From Candidatus Saccharimonadales bacterium (GTDB lineage Bacteria; Patescibacteriota; Saccharimonadia; Saccharimonadales; UBA10212), in contig JBEKOJ010000001.1 of NCBI GenBank assembly GCA_049521895.1, positions 418,717-482,716 on the forward strand: a stretch of DNA of 64,000 bases. Direction: 5' to 3'. Made by a program: the position numbers and the translations under genes. Of this stretch, positions 7,709-59,214 are shown in pieces (positions within the stretch are counted from its first letter, which is position 1; every line of letters begins with the position of its first letter). The notes beneath the pieces are model-generated. The model had not been told where the DNA came from. It saw only the letters and a list, made by a program, of their open reading frames with translations, and ran no database searches.

Positions 7709-7785
7709 TGGTACGCGTGAAGGGATTCGAACCCCCGACCTTTGGTACCGGAAACCAACGCTCTATCCATCTGAGCTACACGCGC
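7709..7785 (-). tRNA. tRNA-Arg (anticodon CCG)
   Basis: Cloverleaf by eye. Anticodon arm is TTGGT-TTCCGGT-ACCAA. CCA is encoded. Confidence 0.9.
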
Positions 7786-12729: not shown

Positions 12730-12734
12730 ACAAA

Positions 12735-12760
12735 AATGCCCAGCCTCGCGTTGGGCATTT
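12735..12760 (+). terminator. rho-independent terminator after tRNA-Arg(TCT)
   Basis: ATGCCCA-GCCTCGCGT-TGGGCAT stem-loop followed by TTTTT. Confidence 0.7.
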
Positions 12761-12813
12761 TTGTGGTTCTCTGGTAGATTCGGTTCTGCGGCTCGACAGC
12801 TTTAGCTGGCGAT

Positions 12814-12898
12814 AGCCGCAGGTTCGGTCATCCAGCTCGCCTGCAGGAGCTTGCTTCGAGAACGAGCGCAGATGTGCGCTCACCCTGCCCGGGGTACC
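12814..12898 (+). repeat. second, interrupted copy of the tRNA-Arg(TCT) 3' part (GCCGCAGGTTCG + 57-nt insert + CCTGCCCGGGGTACCA)
   Basis: The 12 nt before and the 16 nt after the insert are identical to tRNA positions 12703-12714 and 12718-12729... in order. The insert (12826-12882) replaces only the last three T-loop bases. Confidence 0.85.
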
Positions 12899-13003
12899 AA
12901 AGTTCCGTGCCTGCCAACCTTAAATACGCCTAGTTAGCATTAGAGATCGAGAAATCACAGACCGGTAGTGGGGTGATTTGGCCTCTTTTGTTAGTATGTA
13001 AGT

Positions 13004-13693
13004 ATGCCATCAGTTCAAGAAAAGCACTTTACGGCTTCCGCAACTGTCCGAGATGTTGTTATCGGCATGTCAGATGGCTTGACTGTACCTTTTGCTCTAG
13101 CTGCTGGTTTAACAGGTGCTATAGCTGCCTCCCATTTAATTATTACAGCCGGACTAGCAGAAATTGCCGCGGGCTCGATATCTATGGGTCTAGGCGGTTA
13201 TCTGGCTGCTAAAAGTGACGTTGAACATTATTGGAGAGAGCGCGGCCTCGAGGAACAGGAAGTTCAGGACACACCAAGGGTCGAAGCCCAAGAAGTGCAA
13301 GATATATTCAGACAATATGGCCTAAATAACCACCAGATTGAACCTATCATACGAGGCTTTCAGTCCAATCACAAAGCTTGGATTGATTTTATGATGGCTA
13401 ATGAGCTGGGGCTAGAGAAACCCAAACCCAAGCGTGTGCGTAATAGCGCTCTAACTATCGCCCTAGCCTATGTTACAGGCGGTATAGTACCGCTTTCGCC
13501 CTACTTTTTCATTAGTAATGCTAGACACGCTGTATTGCCTTCGATAGTCGTAACACTTATTGCTTTATTTTTGTTTGGTTTTTTCAAAGCTAAAGTTTCA
13601 GGCACAAAGGCTTGGCGAAGCGCCTGGCAGACAGTTCTGATCGGCGGAATTGCCGCAGCTGCGGCGTTCTTTATCGCTAGGGCTATATCTTAG
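13004..13693 (+). CDS. VIT1/CCC1-family iron/manganese transporter
   Basis: 229 aa. Has the N-terminal RDVVIGMSDGLTVPFALAAG motif and C-terminal TM helices typical of the VIT family. Confidence 0.75.
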   Translation: MPSVQEKHFTASATVRDVVIGMSDGLTVPFALAAGLTGAIAASHLIITAGLAEIAAGSISMGLGGYLAAKSDVEHYWRERGLEEQEVQDTPRVEAQEVQDIFRQYGLNNHQIEPIIRGFQSNHKAWIDFMMANELGLEKPKPKRVRNSALTIALAYVTGGIVPLSPYFFISNARHAVLPSIVVTLIALFLFGFFKAKVSGTKAWRSAWQTVLIGGIAAAAAFFIARAIS

Positions 13694-15170: not shown

Positions 15171-15299
15171 TTCAGATTATTTTTCAAATTTTCAAAGCGG
15201 CGGTCTACTAACCGTTTGAAAAATTGAGAGGAGGAGCATAGCGCTAAGCCGAAGCTTTTGCGAAAAAGCAAAACGAGGCCGGCGCGCAAGCTCCGACGA
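15165..15299 (+). ncRNA. L-type structured leader, copy 1 (precedes tRNA-His)
   Basis: Contains an A/T-rich 12-bp hairpin (15185-15226), a purine block GAGAGGAGG and a closing helix GGAGC/GCTCC. It ends in CTCCGACGA directly at the tRNA 5' end. Homologous copies lie at 44612, 47933 and 55360. Confidence 0.55.
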
Positions 15300-16640: not shown

Positions 16641-16660
16641 TGCTATAATTACCCCTGTTG
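16641..16660 (+). promoter_or_regulatory. tRNA promoter module TGCTATAAT + TACCCCTGTT
   Basis: TATAAT lies at 16644-16649. Confidence 0.6.
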
Positions 16661-16674
16661 CACTTTCTGTTTAA

Positions 16675-16762
16675 GGGGAAAGGTAGTAGCGCCGATTCGG
16701 CTTTAGCCGAAGACGGATTCATTCCGGCAGGCGCGTTGAAGGAAAACCGTAGGTTGTCTTTC
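16675..16762 (+). ncRNA. R-type structured element, copy 1 (leader of tRNA-Pro CGG)
   Basis: About 88 nt homologous to 41097-41186. The two copies share identical ends (GGAAAGGTAG... and ...GGAAAACCGTAGGTTGTCTT). Two internal hairpins keep their pairing through compensatory changes. Confidence 0.55.
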
Positions 16763-16773
16763 AAAAATGGTTA

Positions 16774-44534: not shown

Positions 44535-44611
44535 TGGTAGCAGCGACAGGAATCGAACCTGTGACCTCGGGCTTATGAGTCCCACGCTCTAACCAACTGA
44601 GCTACGCTGCC
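44535..44611 (-). tRNA. tRNA with anticodon CAT (elongator Met or Ile2/lysidine substrate)
   Basis: Cloverleaf by eye with loop CTCATAA and CCA encoded. There is an A31/G39 mismatch at the base of the anticodon stem. tilS lies about 0.5 kb away. Confidence 0.8.
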
Positions 44612-44741
44612 TCGTCAGAGTCGACGTGCCGGCCTCCGTACTTTTACTATTTAGAAAAAGTACTTGCGGCCTCAGGTCGTCTCTCCCTCTTCAATTTCAC
44701 AAGCAAGACAACTACTTGTCTTGTGAAATTGCTAAAGAACA
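44612..44741 (-). ncRNA. L-type structured leader, copy 3 (precedes the CAT tRNA)
   Basis: On the minus strand it runs: promoter TGCTATAAT (TATAAT 44753-44748) + ACCCCTGTT, a 12-bp A/T hairpin (44692-44731), the purine block AAGAGGGAGAG, then CTCTGACGA abutting the tRNA. Confidence 0.55.
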
Positions 44742-45107
44742 GGGGTTATTATAGCACAAAACAGATTAGCCCGGGGCTATTCTTCGTTTATCACTTCGTC
44801 TATCGCCAGAAGTTGCGGGTCTTCTGTCGGCAGCAGCACGTATGTTAGCGCGTCAGCCATTTTTTACCTCGTTTTTGTATTTTTTTGATCTGCTATTTAT
44901 TATCATAAGGCTTTTGTTTTGCCTGTCAACAACTTTTAAGCTTGTTTTTATGCTAACTTCGTGGTTAACTATCGCCGTTAGGATCTTATCTGTTCTTGGT
45001 CAAGAGAGAACTAGTGAACGGCCGCAAGGAGATTGTCCGAGTTCAACCGTAGCCAGACGAGTAAGGGGTCGTTCCTAAGTTAGTTAAAGAAATCAAGGAT
45101 ACACTCA

Positions 45108-45362
45108 ATGTACAAATTATTTGTAGGCGGTTTGCCTTTTTCTACTACCGATGATGAGCTCAAAGAACTTTTTGCTGCTCACGGTACCGTAGCTTCAGCT
45201 ACCGTTGTCCGCGACCGCGATAGCGGCCGCAGCAAAGGCTTTGGCTTCGTCGAGTTCGAAAACGACGAAGAAGGTAAAGCTGCCGAGGCTGCCCTTAACG
45301 GCACCGAGGTTGGTGGACGCAACATTTCTGTTGCCCAAGCCCGCCCCAAAGAAGAGCGCTAA
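45108..45362 (+). CDS. RRM-type RNA-binding protein
   Basis: 84 aa with RNP2 LFVGGL and RNP1 KGFGFVEF. Confidence 0.9.
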   Translation: MYKLFVGGLPFSTTDDELKELFAAHGTVASATVVRDRDSGRSKGFGFVEFENDEEGKAAEAALNGTEVGGRNISVAQARPKEER

Positions 45363-45383
45363 GTTTACTTCGACGCTTAAACA

Positions 45384-45412
45384 AAACTCCCTCGATCTGG
45401 GGGAGTTTTTTT
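45384..45412 (+). terminator. rho-independent terminator after the RRM gene
   Basis: ACTCCC-loop-GGGAGT stem followed by a T7 run. Confidence 0.75.
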
Positions 45413-45455
45413 GATAACTAGACAGACTTGACGCATCGCATAGGGAGGAATCTGG

Positions 45456-46844
45456 TTATTTGATAGTTGCGTATTGTTCGACCTTATCGGTCGTGGTGTT
45501 GTATATAGCGATGTACTCGTGGTTCGTAGAGGTAGCGGTATCTAGAATCTGAAGGATAATTTTATCATCGCCAGCCCAGCCCTTGGGGATTATCTGGCTA
45601 ATCTGAGTTATACCATCCGGTACGGGGTTAAAAGAGCTGGTGTCCTTGGTGTTAGTATCAATTACTGTATACCCGTTACTTTTAAACAAAACCGGGAAGA
45701 GATAAAGCTTGTCGCCCTTGGGAGACAGGCTGGTAAAACTATCGGTGGTTACGGCTAGCACTTCAGGTTTATTATCGAGCGACTGTTCGGAGAACTGGTT
45801 TACAGCCGCGCCAACCGTAACTTCATTAGTAAAAATTAAGCCGCCATCTTCTCTGGTGTAGATATCGTAAATGCCACTGCCATCGGTAGTCAATTGGCTA
45901 CTTTTACCAGTAGTTAAATCAAGCTGGAATAAATCGCTGCTGACTGCTGGCTTGGTGGTTGCGCCGCCGGCCTCGACATATTTGGTGGCTGGTTTATCGG
46001 CATAAATAACGGTGTTATTATCTGCCCAAGCCGGGCTGGCATAGCTCATTTCTACCGCATAATCATTGGCGGCGGTCCGACTAAAGCCCTCGCCTATCGG
46101 GTTTAGTGTGGCTGGATAGTCTTTCGTTGTGTTGCTGCGTATATCCCACACTGTTATTTTGTTTTTCTGTGGCAGCGCGAGCTTGTAGCCGTCGGGCGAA
46201 ACGCTACAACAGATTGTGTCAGATACTTCTTCAGGGGTCGCCGAAAAAACTATCTTGTTCTCGCCGGTGTTCAAATCAAGCAGCCTCGCGCCGAGCTTTT
46301 TGTCAACGCCACTGCCTTCGTCAAAACCATACACTACAAAATGGTCACTCATAATATGCGGGGTTCCGCCTCCAGACGTAAGCTTATAGGCTTTATTGGT
46401 CTTCAAATCGTAAAGATAAAGACCGCTATCTCCATAACTGACCACGTTCGCGGAGACTATGACAGTATTGACGTCCGGGTTCGCGCTTTTTACCGTTGGT
46501 AGACCGATAGTCGAGAGTTCTTTGAACTTGCCGGCGTCATAAGTCAGATAGCCTGCTACCGAATCGCCAAACGAAAATTGAGGTTTGGCGCTGGCAAGAG
46601 TAGTGTTGGATGTTTGGTTTGGCGATGAGTTTTTGGAAGTGCTGTGGTACTTAACGAAATAAACAGCTGTTCCGACGGCCAGTATTAGAATTCCGATAAT
46701 AATTATCCAAAGCTTGCTTCTTTTTTGTGGCAAATTCCCAAGGGGAGGCGGCGGAACCGGTTGTTGGCTAACAGGTGGTGTCTCGACCAATTGGGGCTGG
46801 GGTGCAGGCGTTATGGACGGTGGAGCAGTAGAATCATCGTTCAT
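45456..46844 (-). CDS. membrane-anchored protein with beta-propeller-like (TolB/WD40-like) ectodomain
   Basis: 462 aa with a Pro-rich N-terminus, one TM helix and a repetitive beta-strand pattern. Confidence 0.55.
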   Translation of the reverse strand: MNDDSTAPPSITPAPQPQLVETPPVSQQPVPPPPLGNLPQKRSKLWIIIIGILILAVGTAVYFVKYHSTSKNSSPNQTSNTTLASAKPQFSFGDSVAGYLTYDAGKFKELSTIGLPTVKSANPDVNTVIVSANVVSYGDSGLYLYDLKTNKAYKLTSGGGTPHIMSDHFVVYGFDEGSGVDKKLGARLLDLNTGENKIVFSATPEEVSDTICCSVSPDGYKLALPQKNKITVWDIRSNTTKDYPATLNPIGEGFSRTAANDYAVEMSYASPAWADNNTVIYADKPATKYVEAGGATTKPAVSSDLFQLDLTTGKSSQLTTDGSGIYDIYTREDGGLIFTNEVTVGAAVNQFSEQSLDNKPEVLAVTTDSFTSLSPKGDKLYLFPVLFKSNGYTVIDTNTKDTSSFNPVPDGITQISQIIPKGWAGDDKIILQILDTATSTNHEYIAIYNTTTDKVEQYATIK

Positions 46845-47018
46845 TAAACTTAAGTATTACAGAACAGTTGATGAAATACAAAAAGGCGCTAAAGCGCCTT
46901 CTGAATCTAACTTGGTAGCCCGAGTTCATTCGAATTGGAACAACCTCAGGGCAGAATTGGCCAGATGGAAAGCTTTATCTAGGAGCGGTAATCTGTTTGC
47001 TAGCTCTACCGCTCAGTA

Positions 47019-47543
47019 CTAGAACAGGCCGAATGTTGGCAACGATTGGCTACAGGAAATGCTTTGGTAATAAGTTAGAGCCCCGTTATGCGCTGGGTCT
47101 GCCGAATTAAAGCTGATTACGACCGAACAGTAGTTACTGGCTAGAAGCTTATGGACATTGACGCCCATGCTTCTATAAATGTATCGGTTGCCGTTGTTGT
47201 CAGAGCCGTATATGTATGCACCCCAACCATTACTTTTAAGTGAGGCTGTGGCTGTTTGAATATAGTTTTTCAGGTAAGAAGCGGGCTTTCCGTTTGCTCC
47301 AAAAGTGAGCTTGGACTGACACACGGTCTCAAATTCCGAGGGAGCACACTTTACTTCTGTCGGCGTTAAATTATTGGTGACTTGAGATGCTTGCGACAAA
47401 CTAATCGCACTTTTTATGGAACTATTAACATTACGCGGTGCTATATAGTATCGAATTACTAAAACAGCGAAGACCGTAATTAGGATGATTGCCACAAGCA
47501 CAATTAATAAGTTTTTTAGCGGGAGTTTTAAATACCGTTTCAT
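47019..47543 (-). CDS. hypothetical anchored/secreted protein
   Basis: 174 aa with an N-terminal TM helix and no recognisable motif. Confidence 0.5.
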   Translation of the reverse strand: MKRYLKLPLKNLLIVLVAIILITVFAVLVIRYYIAPRNVNSSIKSAISLSQASQVTNNLTPTEVKCAPSEFETVCQSKLTFGANGKPASYLKNYIQTATASLKSNGWGAYIYGSDNNGNRYIYRSMGVNVHKLLASNYCSVVISFNSADPAHNGALTYYQSISCSQSLPTFGLF

Positions 47544-47581
47544 TGACTAGAATATAACCTATTTTTTGAATTTAGGATAAT

Positions 47582-47594
47582 AGGACTCGAACCT
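47582..47594 (-). repeat. third, isolated copy of the tRNA-fMet T-arm (AGGTTCGAGTCCT)
   Basis: 13 nt identical to the tRNA T-arm, preceded on the minus strand by ACCCCTGTT (the promoter-module motif). Confidence 0.6.
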
Positions 47595-47670
47595 AATTAA
47601 CAGGGGTGAGTTTTGATGTAAATCAAAAAGAGACTGGTTTTGGAACCAATCTCTATCTGTAATTATCACT

Positions 47671-47774
47671 TGGTAGCGGGGAGAGGACGGCGTCAGGGCT
47701 AACACGCCTGACTATATCCGCTCCTGCGTTACTCGGAATAAATTCCTGCGTGACTTAGTCGCTACACGAACCTC
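47671..47774 (-). repeat. second, interrupted copy of the tRNA-fMet 3' part (GAGGTTCG + 80-nt insert + CCTCTCCCCGCTACCA)
   Basis: The 16-nt 3' end is identical to the tRNA. The T-stem 5' strand is repeated at 47767-47774. The insert spans 47687-47766. Confidence 0.8.
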
Positions 47775-47823
47775 CCGCTCACTACGTTCGCTCAACGAGG
47801 TTCTCGCCCTTCTCCGAACCATG

Positions 47824-47850
47824 AAAAAAGACCCATCAGAAGATGAGTCA
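47824..47850 (-). terminator. rho-independent terminator after tRNA-fMet
   Basis: On the minus strand: GACTCATC-TTCT-GATGGGTC followed by TTTTTT. Confidence 0.7.
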
Positions 47851-47857
47851 TTTTTCA

Positions 47858-47932
47858 TGGTAGCGGGGAGAGGACTCGAACCTCTGACCTCGTGGTTATG
47901 AGCCACGCGAGCTGCCACTGCTCCACCCCGCG
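47858..47932 (-). tRNA. initiator tRNA-fMet (anticodon CAT)
   Basis: 5' CGCGGGGTGGAGCAG as in bacterial initiators. Position 1:72 is a C/U mismatch. CCA is encoded. Confidence 0.85.
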
Positions 47933-48085
47933 TCGTTGGAGCAAGCCACCAGCTTGCAACGACGAACAGCTAAACTTACGTTTATTGTTCGTGTCTTCAG
48001 CTTTATGCTGCTCCTCCTCTCAAATTTTCAAACCGTGATCAGACCCCCGCTTTGAAAATTTGTGGAAGACCAAGTACATATTCTA
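47933..48085 (-). ncRNA. L-type structured leader, copy 2 (precedes tRNA-fMet)
   Basis: On the minus strand it has a perfect 12-bp A/T hairpin (48021-48062), the purine block GAGAGGAGGAGCA and a closing helix GGAGCA/TGCTCC. It ends in CTCCAACGA at the tRNA 5' end. A -10-like TATAAC lies at 48095-48090. Confidence 0.55.
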
Positions 48086-48104
48086 ATCTGTTATAAGGTG
48101 TTTG

Positions 48105-48569
48105 TCAATCGCTGAAGAGTTTGCGTCCGAGCAAAAAATCCCGCCAATCCTCTAAGTTTTTGGCTACTCCTGTCGGGCCATTTGTTGTGTTGGCATTATT
48201 CGCCGTAGTGGGGGAGACGGCCAAAGATGGATCAATATATTTCATAGCCACACTCTTTGGAATCAGCAAGACCGTTTCGCCGGGGGCGGCTAAGCCAAAA
48301 TTCTGCCGGGCGGCCAGTTCCAGATACTGGTTAGTCTGCAGATATTCATTCTGTAAGGACATATTGGCATTCTGCAAGCCAAGTACACTGTTCTGCTGCC
48401 TCAGGGTAGAGATTTGCTTTTGCAACTCGTAGTTATTCTGAACAGTTTTTACACCGCTCCAGGTAATAGCCAACACGATGACGGCAAAAATATAAAGGCC
48501 GACGTTACGAATATCGGTTAGCTGCCTAATGCGAGCACTGTTCCACTTGGTTTTATTTTTTTTAAACAT
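48105..48569 (-). CDS. septum formation initiator (FtsB/DivIC-like)
   Basis: 154 aa with an N-terminal TM helix followed by a Leu/Gln-rich coiled coil. Confidence 0.6.
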   Translation of the reverse strand: MFKKNKTKWNSARIRQLTDIRNVGLYIFAVIVLAITWSGVKTVQNNYELQKQISTLRQQNSVLGLQNANMSLQNEYLQTNQYLELAARQNFGLAAPGETVLLIPKSVAMKYIDPSLAVSPTTANNANTTNGPTGVAKNLEDWRDFLLGRKLFSD

Positions 48570-48576
48570 CTTAAGC

Positions 48577-48652
48577 TGGTGGGGATGCCTGGACTTGAAC
48601 CAGGGACCAATCGGTTATGAGCCGACTGCTCTAACCACTGAGCTACATCCCC
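48577..48652 (-). tRNA. tRNA with anticodon CAT (elongator Met or Ile2)
   Basis: Cloverleaf by eye. Anticodon arm is GTCGG-CTCATAA-CCGAT. CCA is encoded. Confidence 0.85.
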
Positions 48653-53829: not shown

Positions 53830-55272
53830 CTATTCCGCAGAATCAAGTTTTTGGTGAGGGGTTATTATAGCATTTTTTAGGTGGACGTGCCTTTGAGCCG
53901 CTAAAACCGCCAACAGCACCAGACCATAGCAGGCAACCATTAGGGCTGGGGCAATGGTCAGATGCAAAAATTCGGAGGGAATACTTGCTAATATATGCAC
54001 AACATCAAGCATATATGTCAGTAGCAACCGGGCCGGCAACGCAAACCAGCCGGCGACCGGCGCGGCCAAGCTGCCGGCCGCAGCAGCAATAGCTGATAGT
54101 AACATTGCTACTGATACCAGAGGCACAATCAAGAGATTAGCAATTAAGGCGACCAGTGAAAGTTGGCCAAAAGTCATCATAATCAACGGCTGGGTCATGA
54201 TTTGGGCCGAAAAAGTTTCAATCAGAACCGAAGTCAATATCTTTGGTGGCCGGCTAAATAGGCGGGCGGAAATTATTGGCGCTATCACCAAGACGCCAAA
54301 AAAGGCCAGGAACGACAGGTACCACCCCAAATCGCCCCAAACGTAAAATGGGCTAATCATCCCTGTTAAAGCTGCTGTGAAGCCGATAAGAACCAGGGGC
54401 TTGATTCGCCGGCCATAAAACCAGGCCCACAAAGTCAACAGCGAGACGATTGCCGCCCGCACAATAGACGCGCTAAAACCAGTTATAAGCACAAAGCCGG
54501 CGATAAAGGTGAGCGACAGCATCAGCTGCTGGTATTTGGAGGGCAATCTCAACCGCGCTATAGCCCGGGCAATAATCGTTACATTGTAGCCAGATACCGC
54601 CACGATGTGCACCAGGCCCACCATCGTTAAAGCAGCCAGAACGTCTTGCGGTAGGGTAACCCGTTGGCCAACCAGTAACCCCATGGCAAATGAGGCTACC
54701 GGCTCGGGCAAAGCGTTCTGCATGCCAGCGGCAAAACGCCGGCCAACACTGATAAGCCAGCTATGGCCGATGCCGATGCGGGTTAGCTGCGCATAAGCTA
54801 TGGTCGCCTGGTTGGCGCCACGAGTAGGATAAAGTTTGCCGGTTACTTGCACCCTATCACCCCTGTAAATCATGTGCTCGCCAAAACCACTGAGTTTAAA
54901 CGAACCAGCTAGCGGCTGGTTCTTGGGGGCTATAAGCTGGACATTATTTGCCGTGAATTGGATTTGCGATTTCGTAGAATAGACAGAGTCGCTAGTAGCT
55001 GTAGCCTGAATAGTCACTTTTTGCAGGCTGTAGTCCTGCAGGACATGCAGCCGCTGCATATAAATTCCGCCACGCCACATGCCTAAGCCTAAACCCAGCA
55101 AACAAATTACAATCAGGCTGGTGAAATTTTTTGATTTCAAAAGTAAAAACAGAGGAGTAAATATTAACCACCAAATCTGCGGCGTAATCTGTAATTTACG
55201 CGATAAACCCAGCCCCGCCAGAACCGCAGTGCAACCAGCGGTAATCAGAGTAGTTCGCCTAAACTTTCTCAC
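53830..55272 (-). CDS. comEC: DNA internalisation channel ComEC/Rec2 (competence domain, no beta-lactamase domain)
   Basis: 480 aa, polytopic. The N-terminal OB-like region plus competence-domain pattern (HIVAVSGYNV) is present. The apparent start is GTG. Confidence 0.8.
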   Translation of the reverse strand: MRKFRRTTLITAGCTAVLAGLGLSRKLQITPQIWWLIFTPLFLLLKSKNFTSLIVICLLGLGLGMWRGGIYMQRLHVLQDYSLQKVTIQATATSDSVYSTKSQIQFTANNVQLIAPKNQPLAGSFKLSGFGEHMIYRGDRVQVTGKLYPTRGANQATIAYAQLTRIGIGHSWLISVGRRFAAGMQNALPEPVASFAMGLLVGQRVTLPQDVLAALTMVGLVHIVAVSGYNVTIIARAIARLRLPSKYQQLMLSLTFIAGFVLITGFSASIVRAAIVSLLTLWAWFYGRRIKPLVLIGFTAALTGMISPFYVWGDLGWYLSFLAFFGVLVIAPIISARLFSRPPKILTSVLIETFSAQIMTQPLIMMTFGQLSLVALIANLLIVPLVSVAMLLSAIAAAAGSLAAPVAGWFALPARLLLTYMLDVVHILASIPSEFLHLTIAPALMVACYGLVLLAVLAAQRHVHLKNAIITPHQKLDSAE

Positions 55273-55359
55273 TATTCTGCCATCATGGCAGATATTTGTT
55301 CATAAATTAATTGCTTAAGGTTGATTTTTGGCCTAATAAAACAGATAATGTAAGGTGTT

Positions 55360-55478
55360 TCGTCGGAATCGAGGCACCGGCTTCCGTGAGCTTGTAGACC
55401 GTGCTCACTTTCAGCCTCGGCTCGCTTCCTCCTCTCAATTTCGCAAACGGTCGCTAGCGCCCCGATTCGCAAAATTGC
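55360..55478 (-). ncRNA. L-type structured element, copy 4 (orphan; lies in the comEC upstream region, same strand)
   Basis: On the minus strand it has an 11-bp hairpin with two G-U pairs (55437-55476), GAGAGGAGGAAGC and a closing helix. It ends in ATTCCGACGA, but no tRNA follows. The comEC start is 88 nt downstream. Confidence 0.5.
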
Positions 55479-55664
55479 AAGAGAAATTTTGGACGCCCAA
55501 ACTCACACACTTGGATGCAGTGCAAGACGCCGCCGAGGAACGCCCGCAGGTGTATTACAATACATTGAGGACGTACCGCCGGCGAGCAACGTAGCAGTGC
55601 GCCAAAAAGCCAGCAGGGTTTACGGCTTTGCCGGGAAGCAGTGTTGGCTGGTGTGTGAATTTGG

Positions 55665-55740
55665 GGGCCCATAGCTCAGTTGGTAGAGCAGAGGCCTTTT
55701 AAGCCTCGTGTCGCGGGTTCGAGACCCGCTGGGCCCTCCA
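55665..55740 (+). tRNA. tRNA-Lys (anticodon TTT)
   Basis: Cloverleaf by eye. Anticodon arm is GAGGC-CTTTTAA-GCCTC. CCA is encoded. Confidence 0.9.
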
Positions 55741-55748
55741 ATGAAAGT

Positions 55749-55775
55749 GCCCGGCCTTGCGCCGGGTATTTTCAT
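55749..55775 (+). terminator. rho-independent terminator after tRNA-Lys(TTT)
   Basis: CCCGGC-CTTGC-GCCGGG stem-loop followed by TATTTT. Confidence 0.65.
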
Positions 55776-55827
55776 TGGTTGTCTTAGTCGGTTTCGGTTC
55801 CGCGACCAAGACGCAAAGCGGATTGTA

Positions 55828-55916
55828 GTCGCGGGTTCGGTCATCCAGGTCGCGCGCAGTCCGCCTGAAGCGGACGAGCACGGCTGCAGATGTGCGCTGT
55901 CCCGCTGGGCCCTCCA
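55828..55916 (+). repeat. second, interrupted copy of the tRNA-Lys(TTT) 3' part (GTCGCGGGTTCG + 61-nt insert + CCCGCTGGGCCCTCCA)
   Basis: The flanks are identical to the tRNA. The insert (55840-55900) shares GTCATCCAGSTCGC and GCAGATGTGCGCT blocks with the insert at 12826-12882. Confidence 0.85.
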
Positions 55917-56021
55917 ACCATAAGCATTTTGACCTCTATAATTAACAGGCTACAATCTTATATAATTGCACACAACAAGCTAATTATTGACAACAGTTTA
56001 TAATTATGCTTATATGTGTGT

Positions 56022-56261
56022 ATGTCTCGGGAAAGAAATTCCACTTACTACAGGGATTATGCTGATATGGCACAAGAAATGATTAATGGCTTAAGCGATG
56101 GTGATATGCCACACGTAGGAACACTGCAATATATGTACGGCATTAGTGAAGCGGGTCGTGTGCAAGCAGAACTTGTTATGGACCATATTTTGGCTGACCC
56201 TCAACTAACAGAACAGTTTGACGCTACTGTTACTGCGTTTCAAGCAGAACAAGCGGCTTAA
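56022..56261 (+). CDS. hypothetical small acidic protein (island cassette 1)
   Basis: ORF in the A+T-rich cassette. TTGACA-N17-TTATAT (55987-56015) ends 6 nt before this ATG, so the mRNA may be leaderless. The ORF-track start is 56016. Confidence 0.4.
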   Translation: MSRERNSTYYRDYADMAQEMINGLSDGDMPHVGTLQYMYGISEAGRVQAELVMDHILADPQLTEQFDATVTAFQAEQAA

Positions 56262-56271
56262 TCTTGATAAT

Positions 56272-56499
56272 ATGGAAAGCAGGATTGGTTGGCTACATAA
56301 TACTTCAGGGGATGAAATACCTGTAGATCCGACATTAATTACAGATACATCTGGTGAATTAGTGGACGTAACGCCACAACAACTAGAGCAAATACTTGCC
56401 AATGACCCTGACTCTATTTTGCAGTTAATGGCTTGGGGTAGTTTTCAGAGCAGACAAGAAGCTGAGGCATTTCTTGCTGAGAGCGAGCAAGCCTCTTAA
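56272..56499 (+). CDS. hypothetical small acidic protein (island cassette 1)
   Basis: 75-aa ORF starting at MESRIG, 8 nt after the previous stop. No recognisable motif. Confidence 0.4.
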   Translation: MESRIGWLHNTSGDEIPVDPTLITDTSGELVDVTPQQLEQILANDPDSILQLMAWGSFQSRQEAEAFLAESEQAS

Positions 56500-56506
56500 T
56501 TTCGGC

Positions 56507-56534
56507 TGCTACAGCCTTCACGGTGGCCCTCCAC
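56507..56534 (+). repeat. 28-nt cassette-boundary repeat TGCTACAGCCTTCACGGTGGCCCTCCAC, copy 1
   Basis: Identical to 57660-57687. Its 3' half resembles the tRNA-Lys acceptor end (TGGGCCCTCCA). Confidence 0.9.
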
Positions 56535-56647
56535 AGATAAGACCTAGTGCATCTTCCAAACAGATACTCCCGCCCAGTAATTAATTGACAATCTAGGCAA
56601 GTGATAGTATTCTTAACTTTTTAAAGAGTCGAGGTAGTATTGTTACC

Positions 56648-57613
56648 ATGACAGAACGCAATCCGCAGTTATCGCAGAAGGTTATTGATCTCGCTTGGGA
56701 AGCTGCACAGGCCAGTGACCGAGCATTCGATGAGCGTGATCTAGCCAACTTTAAAATACTAAGTGATATGGCTGCAACTGTTATGCTATTGCCCACTACC
56801 GCGTTTAATTTTCAACGTGCTGAAATTCCATCTGCCCAAGTACCGGAAATTGACGTTGAAACAACTGAACGGCTGGAGGTTCTACCCACTGATTACCGTA
56901 AATTAGTACTAAACCGCTATACCGAAAAAAATGAAGTAGTAGGTACCCAAATTAATGCCAACACCCTGCCTGAACACTATCGGCTGCCGGGGTTAAGTGA
57001 ATTTATAGAAGAGGTCATAGCTTTAGCTCCGGTCTATGAAGCATTTATCAAAAATAGCTGGGAGCCAGAAGTAGTTTTTGTGCCCAACAACCTAAGCCTC
57101 GAGCAGTGGGACAGCCTGCTCATGGGCCATACATTGCCAAATGGCCGTAAGTCCAAGGGCCTATCACGTGCCTGGAGAGTTAATGAAGTTTATGACCAAG
57201 GAACCGACGCTAACCCATGGTATTTAGCTATTGTATGTAGTACTGAAAGACCCCCGCTTACTAATGTAAGTCCTGACGGTGAACACGGCTCTCGAGCCAA
57301 TAAAACCATTAGAATATTGTCAGAACTGCCAAACATAGCTGACGTCTCATCTCCAGAAGCCATTATTAATCAAGCTAGTCCATCAGAAGAAATGTATTGT
57401 GCTTTTCAGCTTGCTCGCTTAGAGCGTGGTGAGCAACCCGTAGACACCGAGACCTGGACCATTGGCAAAGAAAATATTAGCCTGGGATCTCTGTTCTTTA
57501 GCTTTCCTATATACAAGCGGCAGGTTTTCTCTTTCTTTAGCGATCGTGCTCACCGCCTTGAAGGTAGCGGTGTCCGCCCCTCAGCTAACGGTAAAGATCT
57601 AGTTCTCGGCTAG
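56648..57613 (+). CDS. hypothetical protein (island cassette 2)
   Basis: 321-aa ORF with no motif I recognise. It is preceded by TAATTAATTGACAA, a promoter-like sequence homologous to that of cassette 1. Confidence 0.55.
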   Translation: MTERNPQLSQKVIDLAWEAAQASDRAFDERDLANFKILSDMAATVMLLPTTAFNFQRAEIPSAQVPEIDVETTERLEVLPTDYRKLVLNRYTEKNEVVGTQINANTLPEHYRLPGLSEFIEEVIALAPVYEAFIKNSWEPEVVFVPNNLSLEQWDSLLMGHTLPNGRKSKGLSRAWRVNEVYDQGTDANPWYLAIVCSTERPPLTNVSPDGEHGSRANKTIRILSELPNIADVSSPEAIINQASPSEEMYCAFQLARLERGEQPVDTETWTIGKENISLGSLFFSFPIYKRQVFSFFSDRAHRLEGSGVRPSANGKDLVLG

Positions 57614-57691: not shown

Positions 57692-57716
57692 AGCTCATCA
57701 TTTGGATGAGTTTTTA
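57692..57716. terminator. terminator hairpin between the island and the convergent membrane-protein gene
   Basis: CTCATC-ATTTG-GATGAG stem-loop followed by TTTTT. Confidence 0.65.
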
Positions 57717-58193
57717 TTTGTGTCTCTTAATATAATGACTTCTACTGAACCAGACCAGCAATAGGCTTACTAGAGTACCAATACCAATAATTATTGCTTC
57801 TTGCTTTTCTAGCTGGTTCCAAATGCTAAGGTTGCTAAAATTAATGTTCGCCCAGTTGCTCAGTAGCGGACCGACCGTTAGGGCCAGCAAACCGCCGCTA
57901 GCCAGAGCTGGTACGATTTGTAAGTAAAAACGTGAATGTGTGGCGTGTTTTCTAGTCAGTAAAAGCGTTATCGCCAGCGGCACGGCAATCATTATTAGAT
58001 TGATGGCGTTGCCGCTTAGCAGCTGGCCTGATGACACCAAGTGGCTCAACCAATGCTGCGTGCTACCGCTAGCATAGGTGGCAGCTGTAAAGCCGGTGCA
58101 GAGCGCCAAAAATCCCAGGGCCGCATCGGCCCGTAACAAAAAAGTTAACACCAGAGGCGCAGCAAGCAGAGCAATCAGTACCAATTCGGCCAT
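57714..58193 (-). CDS. polytopic membrane protein, unknown function
   Basis: 159 aa with four to five hydrophobic helices. Confidence 0.55.
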   Translation of the reverse strand: MAELVLIALLAAPLVLTFLLRADAALGFLALCTGFTAATYASGSTQHWLSHLVSSGQLLSGNAINLIMIAVPLAITLLLTRKHATHSRFYLQIVPALASGGLLALTVGPLLSNWANINFSNLSIWNQLEKQEAIIIGIGTLVSLLLVWFSRSHYIKRHK

Positions 58194-58296
58194 ACACTGT
58201 TATTTTAGCACTAGCGCTTAGAAAAGTACGGCTGTTCCAAGGTCAATATTTAAAATTTTTGAATACGGCTACTAATTGCGAACTCTTTATTTAGGC

Positions 58297-59214
58297 TTAT
58301 GCGCCAACACGGTCTTTACGGTGCCTAGCTTTGGCATTAACTTCTACGTACTCAATAATTTTTTCGGCGACGTTGCGACTCGTAACCAGCTCTATGCCAA
58401 ACCCAGGACTGGAGTTAACCTCAAGCACAAGCGGTCCTCTATTACTCCTCATAAGATCCACGCCACAGATAGATAGACCCATAGCCCTAGCGGCCTTGAT
58501 GGCCACGTGTTTTTCTTCATCTGTTAGCTTTACCGTACTCCCCTCTCCGCCTTGGTGAAGGTTAGAACGGAATTCCTCCTCAACATTAATGCTTTGGCGT
58601 TTCATACTGGCCACTACTTGACCACCCACCACGAAAGCCCTGATGTCGGTTCCGGCTGACTCCTCTATATACTCTTGTAGCAAGATGTTAGTGCCATCGT
58701 CGTCCATCATATAAAAAGATTGGATAACTGACTTTGCAGCCTTTCTGGTTTCTGCCAGCACTACACCCCGGCCATGGGTGCCACGAGCCAGTTTGATGAT
58801 AATTGGCGGGCCGTCCAGTTTTTCCATTACTTGGTCAACGTCGGTGGCGCCGCGGGAGAAAATGGTTTTTGGAATACCAATACCAGCCCGCGCTAACAGT
58901 TGCACAGAGCGGAGTTTATCACGGGAACGCACAATGGCAATTGAGCTGGCAGTAGTAAAGACACCTTGCATCTCAAACTGCCGCACAATAGCCGTACCGT
59001 AGCGGGTATAGCTAGCCGCAATACGCGGGATAATGGCATCAAAGCCAGTCAGAATCTCGCCTTCGCAGGTAACGATTGGGTTGCTTTTTTCTATCTTGGC
59101 CTCGCATAGCACATAGTTAATAATGCGCACTTCGTGTCCGCGCTTGATGGCTTCTTCTTTCAGCCGTTTGGTTGAGTAATTGCCTGGCCCCTTGGATAAG
59201 ATTGCTATTTTCAT
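58297..59214 (-). CDS. rimK: RimK-family ATP-grasp alpha-L-glutamate ligase
   Basis: 305 aa with ATP-grasp motifs (IIKLARGTHGRGV, LQEYIEES, EVNSSPG). Confidence 0.9.
   Translation of the reverse strand: MKIAILSKGPGNYSTKRLKEEAIKRGHEVRIINYVLCEAKIEKSNPIVTCEGEILTGFDAIIPRIAASYTRYGTAIVRQFEMQGVFTTASSIAIVRSRDKLRSVQLLARAGIGIPKTIFSRGATDVDQVMEKLDGPPIIIKLARGTHGRGVVLAETRKAAKSVIQSFYMMDDDGTNILLQEYIEESAGTDIRAFVVGGQVVASMKRQSINVEEEFRSNLHQGGEGSTVKLTDEEKHVAIKAARAMGLSICGVDLMRSNRGPLVLEVNSSPGFGIELVTSRNVAEKIIEYVEVNAKARHRKDRVGA

Follow-up and report, generated by a model that had tools for sequence, protein, structure and literature searches.

Bacterial pre-tRNAs ordinarily carry short, unconserved 5' leaders that are removed by RNase P. 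Other RNAs are known to depend on tRNA processing, such as the E. coli 3'ETS-leuZ spacer, an sRNA sponge cut from a tRNA precursor, and the eukaryotic MALAT1/mascRNA transcript, the 3' end of which is set by RNase P. T-boxes, which bind tRNA in trans, are located in front of aminoacyl-tRNA synthetase genes and amino-acid genes.

The L-type element resembles a pre-tRNA leader in following a promoter or an earlier tRNA, in ending 0-3 nt before the mature 5' end at tRNA +1, and in also preceding tmRNA, another RNase P substrate. Unlike ordinary leaders it is about 125-140 nt long, conserved and covarying, and it is found before at least 18 tRNA species; one copy, here called the orphan copy, departs further from such leaders in that no tRNA follows it. 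By analogy with 3'ETS-leuZ and MALAT1/mascRNA, L may represent a non-tRNA RNA that is transcribed together with a tRNA or tRNA-like structure and that would have one end set by tRNA-processing enzymes, but it has no similarity to either in sequence or structure and is situated 5' of the tRNA rather than 3'. The orphan copy, with its structured RNA of some 130 nt ahead of a same-strand gene (comEC), is also reminiscent of riboswitch, attenuator and T-box leaders. However, in contrast to riboswitch and attenuator leaders, L is not conserved upstream of comEC, no terminator or anti-terminator lies in between and no Rfam family is matched, and in contrast to T-boxes L precedes the tRNA genes themselves. 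The locus further recalls fimS-type invertible switches, with short inverted repeats between divergent genes and an orientation that differs among related genomes, but no recombinase was found nearby, the assemblies compared have one orientation only, and the repeat does not flank L.

The L-type family

The window, i.e. the whole stretch of 64,000 nucleotides that was analysed, belongs to a Saccharibacteria genome and contains exactly four L copies. Besides the orphan copy these are three canonical copies, which abut one tRNA-His and two tRNA-Met genes and have either the promoter module TGnTATAAT..CCYCTGTT or an upstream tRNA directly 5' of them. The orphan copy is a full-length L-type element, as the earlier note had proposed, with the hairpin, the purine block, the 3' helices and the TTCCGACGA end all present. 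A covariance model (R2), built from 76 metagenome copies only and with no window sequence in its training, gives it 91.4 bits (E=5.9e-19, model positions 1-125), equal to the 91.8 bits of the tRNA-His leader, while a model which included the orphan copy in its training (R1) gives 113.5 bits. The note had limited the element to 55360-55478; the end at 55360 stands, while on the other side the element extends to about 55489 and includes a pyrimidine tract (Table 1).

The secondary structure is supported by covariation in the 76 metagenome copies, in which 91.9% of the cells are paired and 24 of 27 pairs have changed on both sides, while none of 500 shuffles was as good and slid controls reached 30-47% paired. 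At least 27 covariation-supported pairs are thus combined with conserved single-stranded blocks. About 55 of these copies lie 0-3 nt from the 5' end of a same-strand tRNA, representing at least 18 anticodons, and one further copy abuts tmRNA. The sense strand, defined by the purine block, folds more stably than the antisense strand in 96% of 68 L copies, with a mean difference of -7.1+-4.2 kcal/mol for the 68 canonical copies. For the orphan copy the difference is -12.6 kcal/mol (-52.8 kcal/mol, z=-4.0, on the minus strand; -40.2 kcal/mol, z=-1.4, on the plus strand), the strongest sense-over-antisense bias among all copies.

Among Rfam 15 families the gathering score is reached in the window by tRNAs only, the region 55200-56000 gives no relevant match at E<=10, and no relevant family was matched at E<=1 in six other L-carrying loci; permissive matches consist of tRNAs, 5S rRNA and spurious miRNA-hairpin matches on the P1 hairpin. 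L-type elements are a widespread, undescribed and covariation-supported family of structured RNAs, absent from Rfam 15. In Saccharibacteria and related metagenomic bacteria the element takes the place of the leader or spacer directly 5' of tRNA and tmRNA genes. Since L abuts tRNA +1, RNase P cleavage at this position presumably releases it, which follows from established knowledge of tRNA maturation. A small ORF after the purine block, with the block as its Shine-Dalgarno sequence, was rejected, as the distance to a start codon is not constant across copies. Literature searches on structured tRNA leaders in Saccharibacteria or the CPR and on CPR RNase P yielded no description of the L element; one paper only mentions that RNase P RNAs have diverged in the CPR (PMC8172020).

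Not all copies are placed as sense leaders. Copies without an adjacent tRNA, with either an intrinsic terminator or a convergent gene after them, are present in three of the compared loci (L092, L032 and L087; numbered handles denote compared sequences), of which L092 and L032 have terminators of their own. This suggests that L can act apart from a tRNA. Reverse-oriented copies occur in tRNA spacers in at least three lineages other than that of the window (L021/L050/L054, L097 and L030), and the reverse copy between tRNA-Thr and tRNA-Tyr is intact in the three diverged contigs L021, L050 and L054. Relics consisting of L and a 5' tRNA fragment are found in L026, L052, L070 and L086.

Table 1. 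Features of the comEC/tRNA-Lys locus and the other L-type copies in the window.
Feature	Position	Strand	Basis
L-type element, orphan copy	55360..55489	-	R2, R1, strand-biased fold, structure map
Orphan copy: pyrimidine tract	5' end, to ~55489	-	pairs with purine block
Orphan copy: long P1 hairpin	~55477-55436	-	structure map
Orphan copy: purine block GAGAGGAGGA	55436-55427	-	structure map
Orphan copy: nested 3' domain / helices	~55429-55365	-	structure map
Orphan copy: single-stranded tail GACGA	55364-55360	-	structure map
Orphan copy: 3' end ...TTCCGACGA	at 55360	-	structure map
Canonical L-type copy abutting tRNA-His	15172..15299	+	R1/R2 models
Canonical L-type copy abutting tRNA-Met (44535-44611)	44612..44743	-	R1/R2 models
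Canonical L-type copy abutting tRNA-Met (47858-47932)	47933..48074	-	R1/R2 models
comEC, 480 aa, Competence domain only, GTG start	53830..55272	-	Pfam PF03772, E=3.7e-44
Invariant block TTAAGCAATTAATTT	55304..55318	-	alignment of window and seven relatives
tRNA-Lys promoter module	55321..55359	+	promoter scan; conserved in relatives
tRNA-Lys promoter -35, TTGATT	55321-55326	+	sigma-70 scan
tRNA-Lys promoter -10, GATAAT, then gtAAGGTGTT	55344-55349	+	sigma-70 scan
Segment S', 175-nt multibranched hairpin between rc(L) and tRNA-Lys	55490..55664	+	fold
Palindrome TGTATTACAATACA	55551..55564	.	apical hairpin of one S' arm (MFE structure)
tRNA-Lys(UUU)	55665..55740	+	ARAGORN and Rfam
Intrinsic terminator of tRNA-Lys transcript	55738..55778	+	terminator scan: 18 pairs, then T-run

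The comEC/tRNA-Lys locus

The gene that follows the orphan copy on the same strand is comEC, as the earlier note had it, with a Pfam Competence domain and 1964 homologues, the best matches being ComEC of Saccharibacteria. The GTG start is backed by an N-terminal alignment with the orthologue in L081, and the distance from it to the 3' end of L is 87 nt, one less than the 88 nt first given. This interval is composed of the reverse complement of the tRNA-Lys promoter and a conserved block, and a terminator scan found no minus-strand terminator between 55360 and 55272. The block, 32-46 nt upstream of the comEC start and thus between L and comEC, contains the motif T[AT]AGCAATTAA[TG]TT, which is invariant in all eight aligned sequences, regardless of the state of the tRNA module and of the direction in which it points. 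It probably holds the promoter or operator of comEC itself, judging from this conservation.

The tRNA-Lys promoter, detected by the sigma-70 scan as TTGATT-17-GATAAT, faces away from comEC and into the antisense strand of L. This module is also located directly upstream of tRNA-Lys(UUU) in eleven relatives (L001, L004-L007, L012, L014, L016, L017, L043 and L081), and positions 55316-55359 of the window (GGTTGATTTTT..AAAACAGATAATgtAAGGTGTT) correspond to the conserved promoter of L001, L012, L014, L016, L017, L043 and L081, with the reverse complement of L, rc(L), starting at the next base. On the plus strand the order is accordingly promoter, rc(L), S' and tRNA-Lys. The orphan copy has no same-strand tRNA on its 3' side, the next bases being the reverse complement of the tRNA-Lys promoter, and on its 5' side it is bordered by the hairpin S' and lacks the usual promoter module or upstream tRNA. 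S' folds at -78.8 kcal/mol (z=-5.3) and is closed by a 21-nt inverted repeat (55490-55510 / 55651-55671, 86% match), the right arm of which reaches 7 nt into tRNA-Lys. A repeat or MITE-like nature of S' was rejected, as no second copy was found in the window or across 0.85 Mb of DNA from related loci. The palindrome that the note had proposed as a -10 region able to fire in both directions, and had placed at about 55549-55562, lies two bases further on; the sigma-70 scan called no promoter there on either strand, and it forms a hairpin tip within S'.

The earlier note had offered two readings of the orphan copy, one being that L controls comEC. According to this reading L would be part of the comEC 5' UTR and regulate or process the mRNA in cis, which fits its intact structure, its position on the comEC strand 87 nt upstream and the missing terminator in between. 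The relatives speak against it. An L on the comEC strand upstream of comEC is found in none of L001, L003-L007, L012-L017, L117, L118 and L081, and the ten relatives that have a readable region and in which L does not serve as tRNA-Lys leader, namely five species with 72-79% ComEC identity and five relatives at a greater distance, show no L at all upstream of comEC. The closer group comprises eight loci in five species (L012/L013, L014/L015, L016, L017, L117 and L118), among which L012-L017 carry tRNA-Lys at this position, an arrangement that the earlier note had named as contrary to its proposal; the more distant L001 and L003-L005 likewise lack L upstream of comEC. Where L is present at the locus, in L081, L043, L006 and L007, it is on the tRNA strand, opposite to comEC, and constitutes the leader abutting the 5' end of tRNA-Lys(UUU). 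Moreover, the invariant comEC block is situated downstream of L, the 87-nt interval is a reverse-complemented tRNA-Lys promoter rather than an expression platform, no promoter is predicted upstream of L, and a survey of about 85 L copies found none that demonstrably forms the 5' UTR of a protein-coding gene, with that in L048 left as a candidate because its contig ends. A role of L in comEC expression is thus very improbable.

Origin and expression of the flipped copy

The other reading, a relic of a lost tRNA module, came close as regards the relic, while the tRNA itself is not lost: tRNA-Lys(UUU) is found 186 nt away on the other strand. The orphan copy is probably an inverted tRNA-Lys leader, most likely a silent and recently stranded relic, with comEC relying on signals of its own. 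The ancestral order would have been tRNA-Lys promoter, (spacer), L and tRNA-Lys(UUU), transcribed away from comEC, a sense arrangement which is still present in L081, L043, L006 and L007. The locus in L081 is fully syntenic, with comEC followed by the divergent promoter, a sense L, tRNA-Lys, a terminator and an R-type element, and with downstream genes that match those in the window. In the lineage of the window a small rearrangement within the locus, probably consisting of one or two inversions, would then have flipped L. The region inverts repeatedly within the clade; L012/L016 and L014/L017 carry the complete promoter-tRNA-Lys module in opposite orientations.

With L flipped inside the leader, the primary transcript of tRNA-Lys would begin with a leader of about 305-310 nt that includes rc(L) and that RNase P would remove. 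The sense strand of L faces comEC with no recognisable promoter or tRNA-like 3' partner and upstream of the conserved comEC block. Expression of comEC would depend on signals of its own, located no more than about 60 nt from its start.

The kinship of the orphan copy is consistent with such an origin. Among about 85 copies the closest are tRNA-Lys leaders, those of L043 (79% identity globally, 83% by blastn) and L081 (70%), whereas identity to the paralogues in the same genome is 61-62% only. However, the similarity of L copies can cross tRNA loci, the tRNA-Met leader of L012 and the tRNA-Lys leader of L081 being 81% identical, and the leaders of L043 and L081 are accordingly likely rather than proven orthologues of the orphan copy. 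The path of the rearrangement is constrained by S'. While the order in L043 is promoter, S, L and tRNA, that in the window is promoter, rc(L), S' and tRNA, and the first 31 nt of S' match the spacer between promoter and L in L043 at 25 of 31 positions and in the same orientation (score 38; shuffles 20.5+-3.3, maximum 36). A single block inversion of 55360-55664 as the sole event is rejected because of this unreversed match. That S kept its orientation while L was flipped implies two events, or an independent insertion of S or L. An assembly artefact is also rejected, because two further ENA assemblies are identical to the window across the region and a third differs at one base; all three share the window orientation, as judged from assemblies rather than reads.

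Fresh insertion of L in reverse orientation into the tRNA-Lys leader is a possible origin, in which case L would be cassette-like or mobile and the antisense L could pair with the other three L RNAs of the window; in the antisense strand, a 14-nt stretch (CCTCCTCTCAATTT) is perfectly complementary to the purine block region of the tRNA-His leader. At each of the four orthologous tRNA loci compared, the window and L012 differ in whether L is present, while their promoters are conserved, and besides the similarity across tRNA identities, L occurs in both orientations with junctions exactly at mature tRNA ends and as the relics with 5' tRNA fragments mentioned above. Differential loss from an L-rich ancestor would, however, explain this patchiness equally well. 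The closest copies being tRNA-Lys leaders of the same locus also argues against a newcomer, as does the lack of near-identical copies within a genome (the window copies are mutually 52-64% identical). Association with phages or mobile elements was rejected, as the L pattern had no match in a viral collection, and no transposase or reverse transcriptase was found near the orphan copy. Insertion is accordingly given only a slim chance compared with the inverted leader.

A programmed switch could likewise account for an inverted arrangement, with inverted repeats flipping either a promoter segment or L, and so toggling between tRNA-Lys and L/comEC in a phase-variable manner. The 21-nt repeat flanks a 140-nt segment that contains a TACAAT hexamer, related species carry the tRNA-Lys module in one or the other orientation, and the L of L081 is flanked exactly by an inverted repeat of 6 nt (TCGTCG/CGACGA). 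However, the segment flanked in the window is 55511-55650, with L outside it, the repeat does no more than close the stem of a strongly folding RNA hairpin which also pairs with the 5' end of the tRNA, and the hexamer has neither a -35 nor a TG extension. The assemblies with their single orientation point in the same direction. The neighbouring ORFs at 56016-57613 and 57714-58193 have no Pfam, PHROG or NCBIfam match, and there is therefore no recognisable recombinase or invertase nearby; the other neighbours are YebC, NUDIX and a peptidase. A programmed switch is thus hardly credible at this locus.

The silence attributed to the stranded leader may be questioned on the grounds of its structure. 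The flipped copy could be a working, stand-alone minus-strand L sRNA, acting in trans and independently of tRNA and comEC, and driven by a weak or unconventional promoter inside S'. Copies free of a tRNA elsewhere (L092, L032, L087) and the reverse copy kept intact in the diverged L021, L050 and L054 are in line with this, and among all copies it is the orphan copy that shows the best structure and the most pronounced sense-strand bias. In addition, sense-strand pairing is kept in all four of its lineage-specific helix changes, and antisense pairing would be lost with two of these (A to G, giving G-U), although this pattern has a probability of about 0.25 by chance and is not significant. On the other hand, neither consensus scan nor inspection predicted a minus-strand promoter within about 200 nt upstream, the best candidate by eye being the poor TGCTACGTT, and upstream the next gene on the minus strand lies over 2 kb off, on the far side of convergent genes. 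Terminator and tRNA scans also revealed no terminator or tRNA-like structure after the GACGA tail to set a 3' end. The intact structure and the helix changes fit a recent inversion and a continued minus-strand selection equally well, and an sRNA of this kind is considered unlikely, while a recently inverted and silent leader is the preferred reading.

Consequences for the organism and the family

As the reading of L as a comEC regulator fails, nothing new on DNA uptake in Saccharibacteria follows from the orphan copy. Rather, the flipped copy shows what tRNA genes may tolerate: the only tRNA-Lys(UUU) gene seen in the window appears to accept an inversion of L inside its leader. The differing presence of L at all four orthologous tRNA loci in two related species suggests a dispensable cassette with a rapid turnover. 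The flipped copy may also serve as a natural control for the family, as it shares structure and genome with the other copies but lacks a tRNA partner and, it appears, a promoter.

There is a small chance that L is a new, autonomous class of functional RNA, which uses the downstream tRNA and RNase P only to set its 3' end, or a cassette moving among the boundaries of tRNA genes, and that the flipped copy is still expressed as a stand-alone RNA or that its antisense, as part of the pre-tRNA-Lys leader, pairs with the other L RNAs. If so, it would represent a natural uncoupling of L from the tRNA and would show that L functions in its own right. The L family is a more interesting object than the orphan copy, which helps to define a widespread, covarying RNA family located directly 5' of tRNA and tmRNA genes.

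The L-type element as an RNA family

Twelve tRNA genes are present in the window, tRNA being the sole Rfam family that reaches gathering score there, and the printed flanks of all of them reveal, at tRNA-His and two tRNA-Met genes, a block of about 130 nt, the L-type element (L), between the promoter module (TGnTATAAT-nn-CCYCTGTT) and tRNA +1. A fourth copy, the orphan, lies between comEC and tRNA-Lys(UUU). Read 5' to 3', it comprises a pyrimidine tract, a long A/U-rich hairpin and a purine block (GAGAGGAGGA) whose final bases pair with a CUCC close to the 3' end, followed by nested inner helices and the tail ...TTCCGACGA. Its minus strand folds at -52.8 kcal/mol (z=-4.0) against -40.2 kcal/mol (z=-1.4) for the plus strand. 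A covariance model of 76 metagenome copies, with the window sequences left out, assigns it 91.4 bits (E=5.9e-19), equal to the tRNA-His leader. The complete set of features and this independent score confirm that the orphan is a genuine copy, as an earlier note had claimed. The location and strand reported there also hold, with a 5' limit that reaches ~55489, and the GTG of comEC does follow on the same strand, at 87 nt by recount.

Features of the window discussed in the text
Feature	Position	Strand	Remarks
L copy before tRNA-His	15172-15299	+	between promoter module and tRNA +1
L copy before one tRNA-Met	44612-44743	-	between promoter module and tRNA +1
L copy before second tRNA-Met	47933-48074	-	between promoter module and tRNA +1
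Orphan L copy (fourth)	55360-55489	-	all features of the other three copies
comEC	53830-55272	-	480-aa ComEC-type protein, Pfam Competence, E=3.7e-44
Palindrome TCTGCCATGATGGCAGA	55276-55292		perfect, 17 nt, directly upstream of comEC GTG
Invariant block TTAAGCAATTAATTT	55304-55318		32-46 nt upstream of comEC start
tRNA-Lys promoter module	55316-55359	+	called as TTGATT-17-GATAAT by the promoter scan
Segment S'	55490-55664		175 nt
Inverted repeat of S'	55490-55510, 55651-55671		terminal, 21 nt
Palindrome TGTATTACAATACA	55551-55564		tip of one S' arm
tRNA-Lys(UUU)	55665-55740	+
tRNA-3'-like element	~12731-12905	+
tRNA-3'-like element	~47857-47670	-
tRNA-3'-like element	55779-55917	+
Segment without counterpart in L081	55920-57713		~1.8 kb

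The consensus fold of six copies shows compensatory changes in 17 of 27 pairs. Of 99 stretches picked up by a pattern scan of metagenome contigs, 76 are strong model matches. In their alignment paired cells make up 91.9%, and 24 of the 27 pairs show two-sided changes; none of 500 shuffles reaches these values, and slid partners leave 30-47% paired. In 96% of canonical copies the sense strand folds more stably than its complement (mean difference 7.1±4.2 kcal/mol). No Rfam 15 family matches L at permissive thresholds, the viral collection gave no match, and no description was found in the literature. L is a real RNA family absent from Rfam 15.

A same-strand tRNA 5' end adjoins L at 0-3 nt in about 55 of the 76 copies, covering at least 18 different anticodons with Met the commonest, and one copy adjoins a tmRNA. 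The latter (L075:1380-1663; three-digit handles denote loci or contigs from relatives or metagenomes), where L directly abuts an apparent tmRNA (GGGGGCTGATTTAAGCTCGACG...), suggests that L precedes RNase P substrates generally, beyond tRNAs alone. Given this spacing from tRNAs and tmRNA, the 3' end of L would arise where RNase P cuts at tRNA +1, L-type RNAs probably being co-transcribed leaders or spacers. Several copies have their 3' end 0-2 nt from the CCA end of an antisense tRNA (L021:2146-2341, L054:5221-5509, L050:828-1052, L097:12057-12260 and 13256-13478, L030:4564-4843), so that the reverse complement, rc(L), fills the tRNA-tRNA spacer of a tRNA operon. The arrangement Thr-rc(L)-Tyr is kept across the three diverged contigs L021, L050 and L054, and in L030 one P1 hairpin is common to two L matches on opposite strands. 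A few copies stand alone, with no adjacent tRNA and with an intrinsic terminator or a convergent gene after them (L092:860-1050, L032:880-1086, L087:2100-2385); they look like independent small-RNA genes, possibly from lineages of lower GC.

In several of the 76 copies, a fragment of the tRNA 5' end and an insert separate L from the full tRNA. Such duplicated 5' fragments, with inserts of 55-150 nt before the complete tRNA, occur after L (L026:4689-4981, L052:33-315, L070:8206-8474, L086:2593-2874) and after a promoter alone (L004:9530-9800, L005:9544-9800), the insert sometimes holding an inverted D-arm piece and a new promoter; they are scars of rearrangement that recur at the 5' ends of tRNAs. 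An extended module, (CTGTTTT)-N-TGnTATAAT-nn-CCYCTGTT, is common to window tRNA promoters (tRNAs at 7785, 12426, 15301, 16774 and 44611), the tRNA or L starting immediately past ...CTGTT, and in L004-L007 the module is palindromic (AAAACAGAG-ATAAT-..-CTCTGTTTT). tRNA-Pro genes (window 16660-16773; L058:3198-3233) have a different conserved leader motif (...GAAAAACCGTAGGTTTGTCT...), placed in L058 between an L element and tRNA-Pro(GGG).

The tRNA-Lys/comEC locus across relatives

The ComEC relatives are all Saccharibacteria, and the closest species with available DNA show 72-79% ComEC identity. In these (L012-L017) the gene immediately upstream of comEC is tRNA-Lys(UUU), whose ~17-nt leader lacks L; the tRNA runs in the same direction as comEC in L012, L013 and L016, and L014, L015 and L017 have it divergent. 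Close relatives thus differ by a flip of the entire promoter-tRNA module (L012:9790-9925 and L016:9800-9920 versus L014:2489-2640 and L017:4545-4700). L117 and L118 have lost tRNA-Lys, tRNA fragments only being left in L117 and none in L118, and have no L at this locus. The region upstream of comEC is a hotspot for small-scale inversion and deletion.

In all these cases the tRNA-Lys promoter is of one form (GTTGAyTTTT..AAAACAGATAAT-nn-AAGGTGTT), and in the window it is directed away from comEC, towards tRNA-Lys. As the base next to its end, 55360, is the 3' end of the orphan read backwards, the orphan does not stand outside a tRNA unit: it lies antisense between this promoter and tRNA-Lys, followed by S' and the tRNA. 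L006 and L007 (40-44% ComEC identity) have promoter, L and tRNA-Lys, divergent from comEC. More telling are the metagenome contigs L081 and L043. L081 is fully syntenic with the window (ComEC N-terminus MRLRRTTLITVGC... versus VRKFRRTTLITAGC...) and has the same upstream block and promoter, then ATTCGTCGC, sense L, tRNA-Lys, a terminator, the same tRNA-3'-like element and genes matching window 57747-59076; L043 has promoter, an 82-nt spacer S, sense L and tRNA-Lys. Among about 85 copies the nearest to the orphan is the L043 tRNA-Lys leader (79% global, 83% over 127 nt by blastn), the L081 leader ranking fifth (70%); the three paralogues of the same genome are 61-62% identical. The orphan and L043 differ by 15% in helices and 36% in loops, with three compensatory pairs.

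The tRNA-3'-like elements lie downstream of tRNA-Arg(UCU), one tRNA-Met and tRNA-Lys(UUU), the last example being conserved in L081 (~440-650). Each tRNA is followed by a terminator, a stretch partly antisense to the tRNA 3' half, and a second copy of its T-arm, acceptor 3' strand and CCA, in which the T-loop is broken by an insert of ~60-80 nt (GGTTCG|GTCATCCAG...GCAGATGTGCGCT... for Arg and Lys). A simple att remnant was rejected as an explanation. The segment lacking in L081 sits between the tRNA-Lys downstream element and a 159-aa gene; its ORFs of 81, 93 and 321 aa have no Pfam, PHROG or NCBIfam match, and it may be a small island inserted beside the tRNA.

Segment S' and possible routes of the proposed flip

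The first 31 nt of S' (TGGACGCCCAAACTCACACACTTGGATGCAG), to which the resemblance is limited, match the start of the L043 spacer at 25 of 31 positions (score 38 versus 20.5±3.3 for shuffles, maximum 36). Since the orientation is the same, the window order is promoter, rc(L), S', tRNA versus promoter, S, L, tRNA in L043, which excludes a single block inversion as origin. Two inversions, the second across S' via its own terminal inverted repeat, would fit, as would an in-place flip of L in an L081-like ancestor with later acquisition of S', L in L081 being flanked exactly by a 6-nt inverted repeat (TCGTCG/CGACGA); re-insertion of L would fit too. The arrangement recurs exactly in two further ENA assemblies and with a one-base difference in a third, which rules out an assembly artefact, and no second orientation was seen in these three.

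The fold of S', directly 5' of tRNA-Lys, is a multibranched hairpin (-78.8 kcal/mol, z=-5.3). It is closed by the 21-nt inverted repeat, which extends 7 nt into the tRNA acceptor strand, and the left end of S' could pair with the first 7 nt of tRNA-Lys. No second copy of S' turned up in the window, nor in related DNA totalling 0.85 Mb. The palindrome at the arm tip, placed slightly differently by the earlier note and read there as a possible bidirectional promoter, has a TACAAT hexamer with neither a -35 nor a TG extension; the promoter scan gave no call at this site on the plus or the minus strand.

comEC and the standing of the orphan

The evidence speaks against an action of the orphan on comEC. 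The suggestion that L is a cis device for this gene is not supported: no relative examined has L upstream of comEC on the comEC strand, and the block T[AT]AGCAATTAA[TG]TT, invariant in all eight aligned sequences (window and seven relatives), lies downstream of L in the window and persists through every state of the tRNA module. As it follows the tRNA terminator in L012 and L016, only that short interval can hold the comEC signals. L and GTG are separated by 87 nt, made up of this block and the tRNA-Lys promoter in reverse complement, with no terminator-type platform; no minus-strand promoter is predicted upstream of L, and the nearest upstream minus-strand gene is >2 kb off, beyond convergent genes. 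L in the 5' UTR of a protein-coding gene is shown for no other copy, one possible case being L048, whose contig ends ~130 nt past L, just beyond a possible start codon. The 17-nt palindrome before the GTG, partly conserved in L016 and L081, and the invariant block are candidate comEC operator or promoter sites.

The orphan is in perfect structural condition, with the largest sense-strand stability bias of all copies (-12.6 kcal/mol). Four lineage-specific helix changes all keep sense pairing and two would break antisense pairing, an outcome with a chance probability of ~0.25 on four changes only; a recent flip would account for it, and so would continued use of the minus-strand RNA. Residual independent function as an RNA is conceivable, as other lineages keep reverse-oriented L intact (L021/L050/L054) and some copies stand alone. 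A fresh insertion in reverse orientation is also possible, in keeping with fast turnover of L, whose behaviour is that of a dispensable cassette. At each of the four tRNA loci orthologous between the window and L012 (three tRNA-Met, tRNA-Lys), the two disagree in L state while promoters are conserved. The three tRNA-Met genes (window 44535-48652, L012:17465-19775) are pairwise orthologous and 81-97% identical, L standing on Met1 and Met2 in the window and only on the Met3 orthologue in L012. The tRNA-Met leader of L012 and the tRNA-Lys leader of L081 share 81% identity.

We consider it probable, taking the proposal as a whole, that L leaders are processed by RNase P and that at the window locus the resident tRNA-Lys leader has flipped. 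The tRNA-Lys precursor would start near 55356 and carry antisense L and S' as a leader of ~305-310 nt, discarded by RNase P; the sense strand of the orphan would be untranscribed, or transcribed only incidentally, and comEC driven from its own conserved proximal signals. The earlier reading as a relic of a lost tRNA module was nearly right: the orphan is probably a stranded tRNA leader, but the tRNA itself remains. The orphan is an ordinary small rearrangement, and the novel object is the L-type family rather than this copy.
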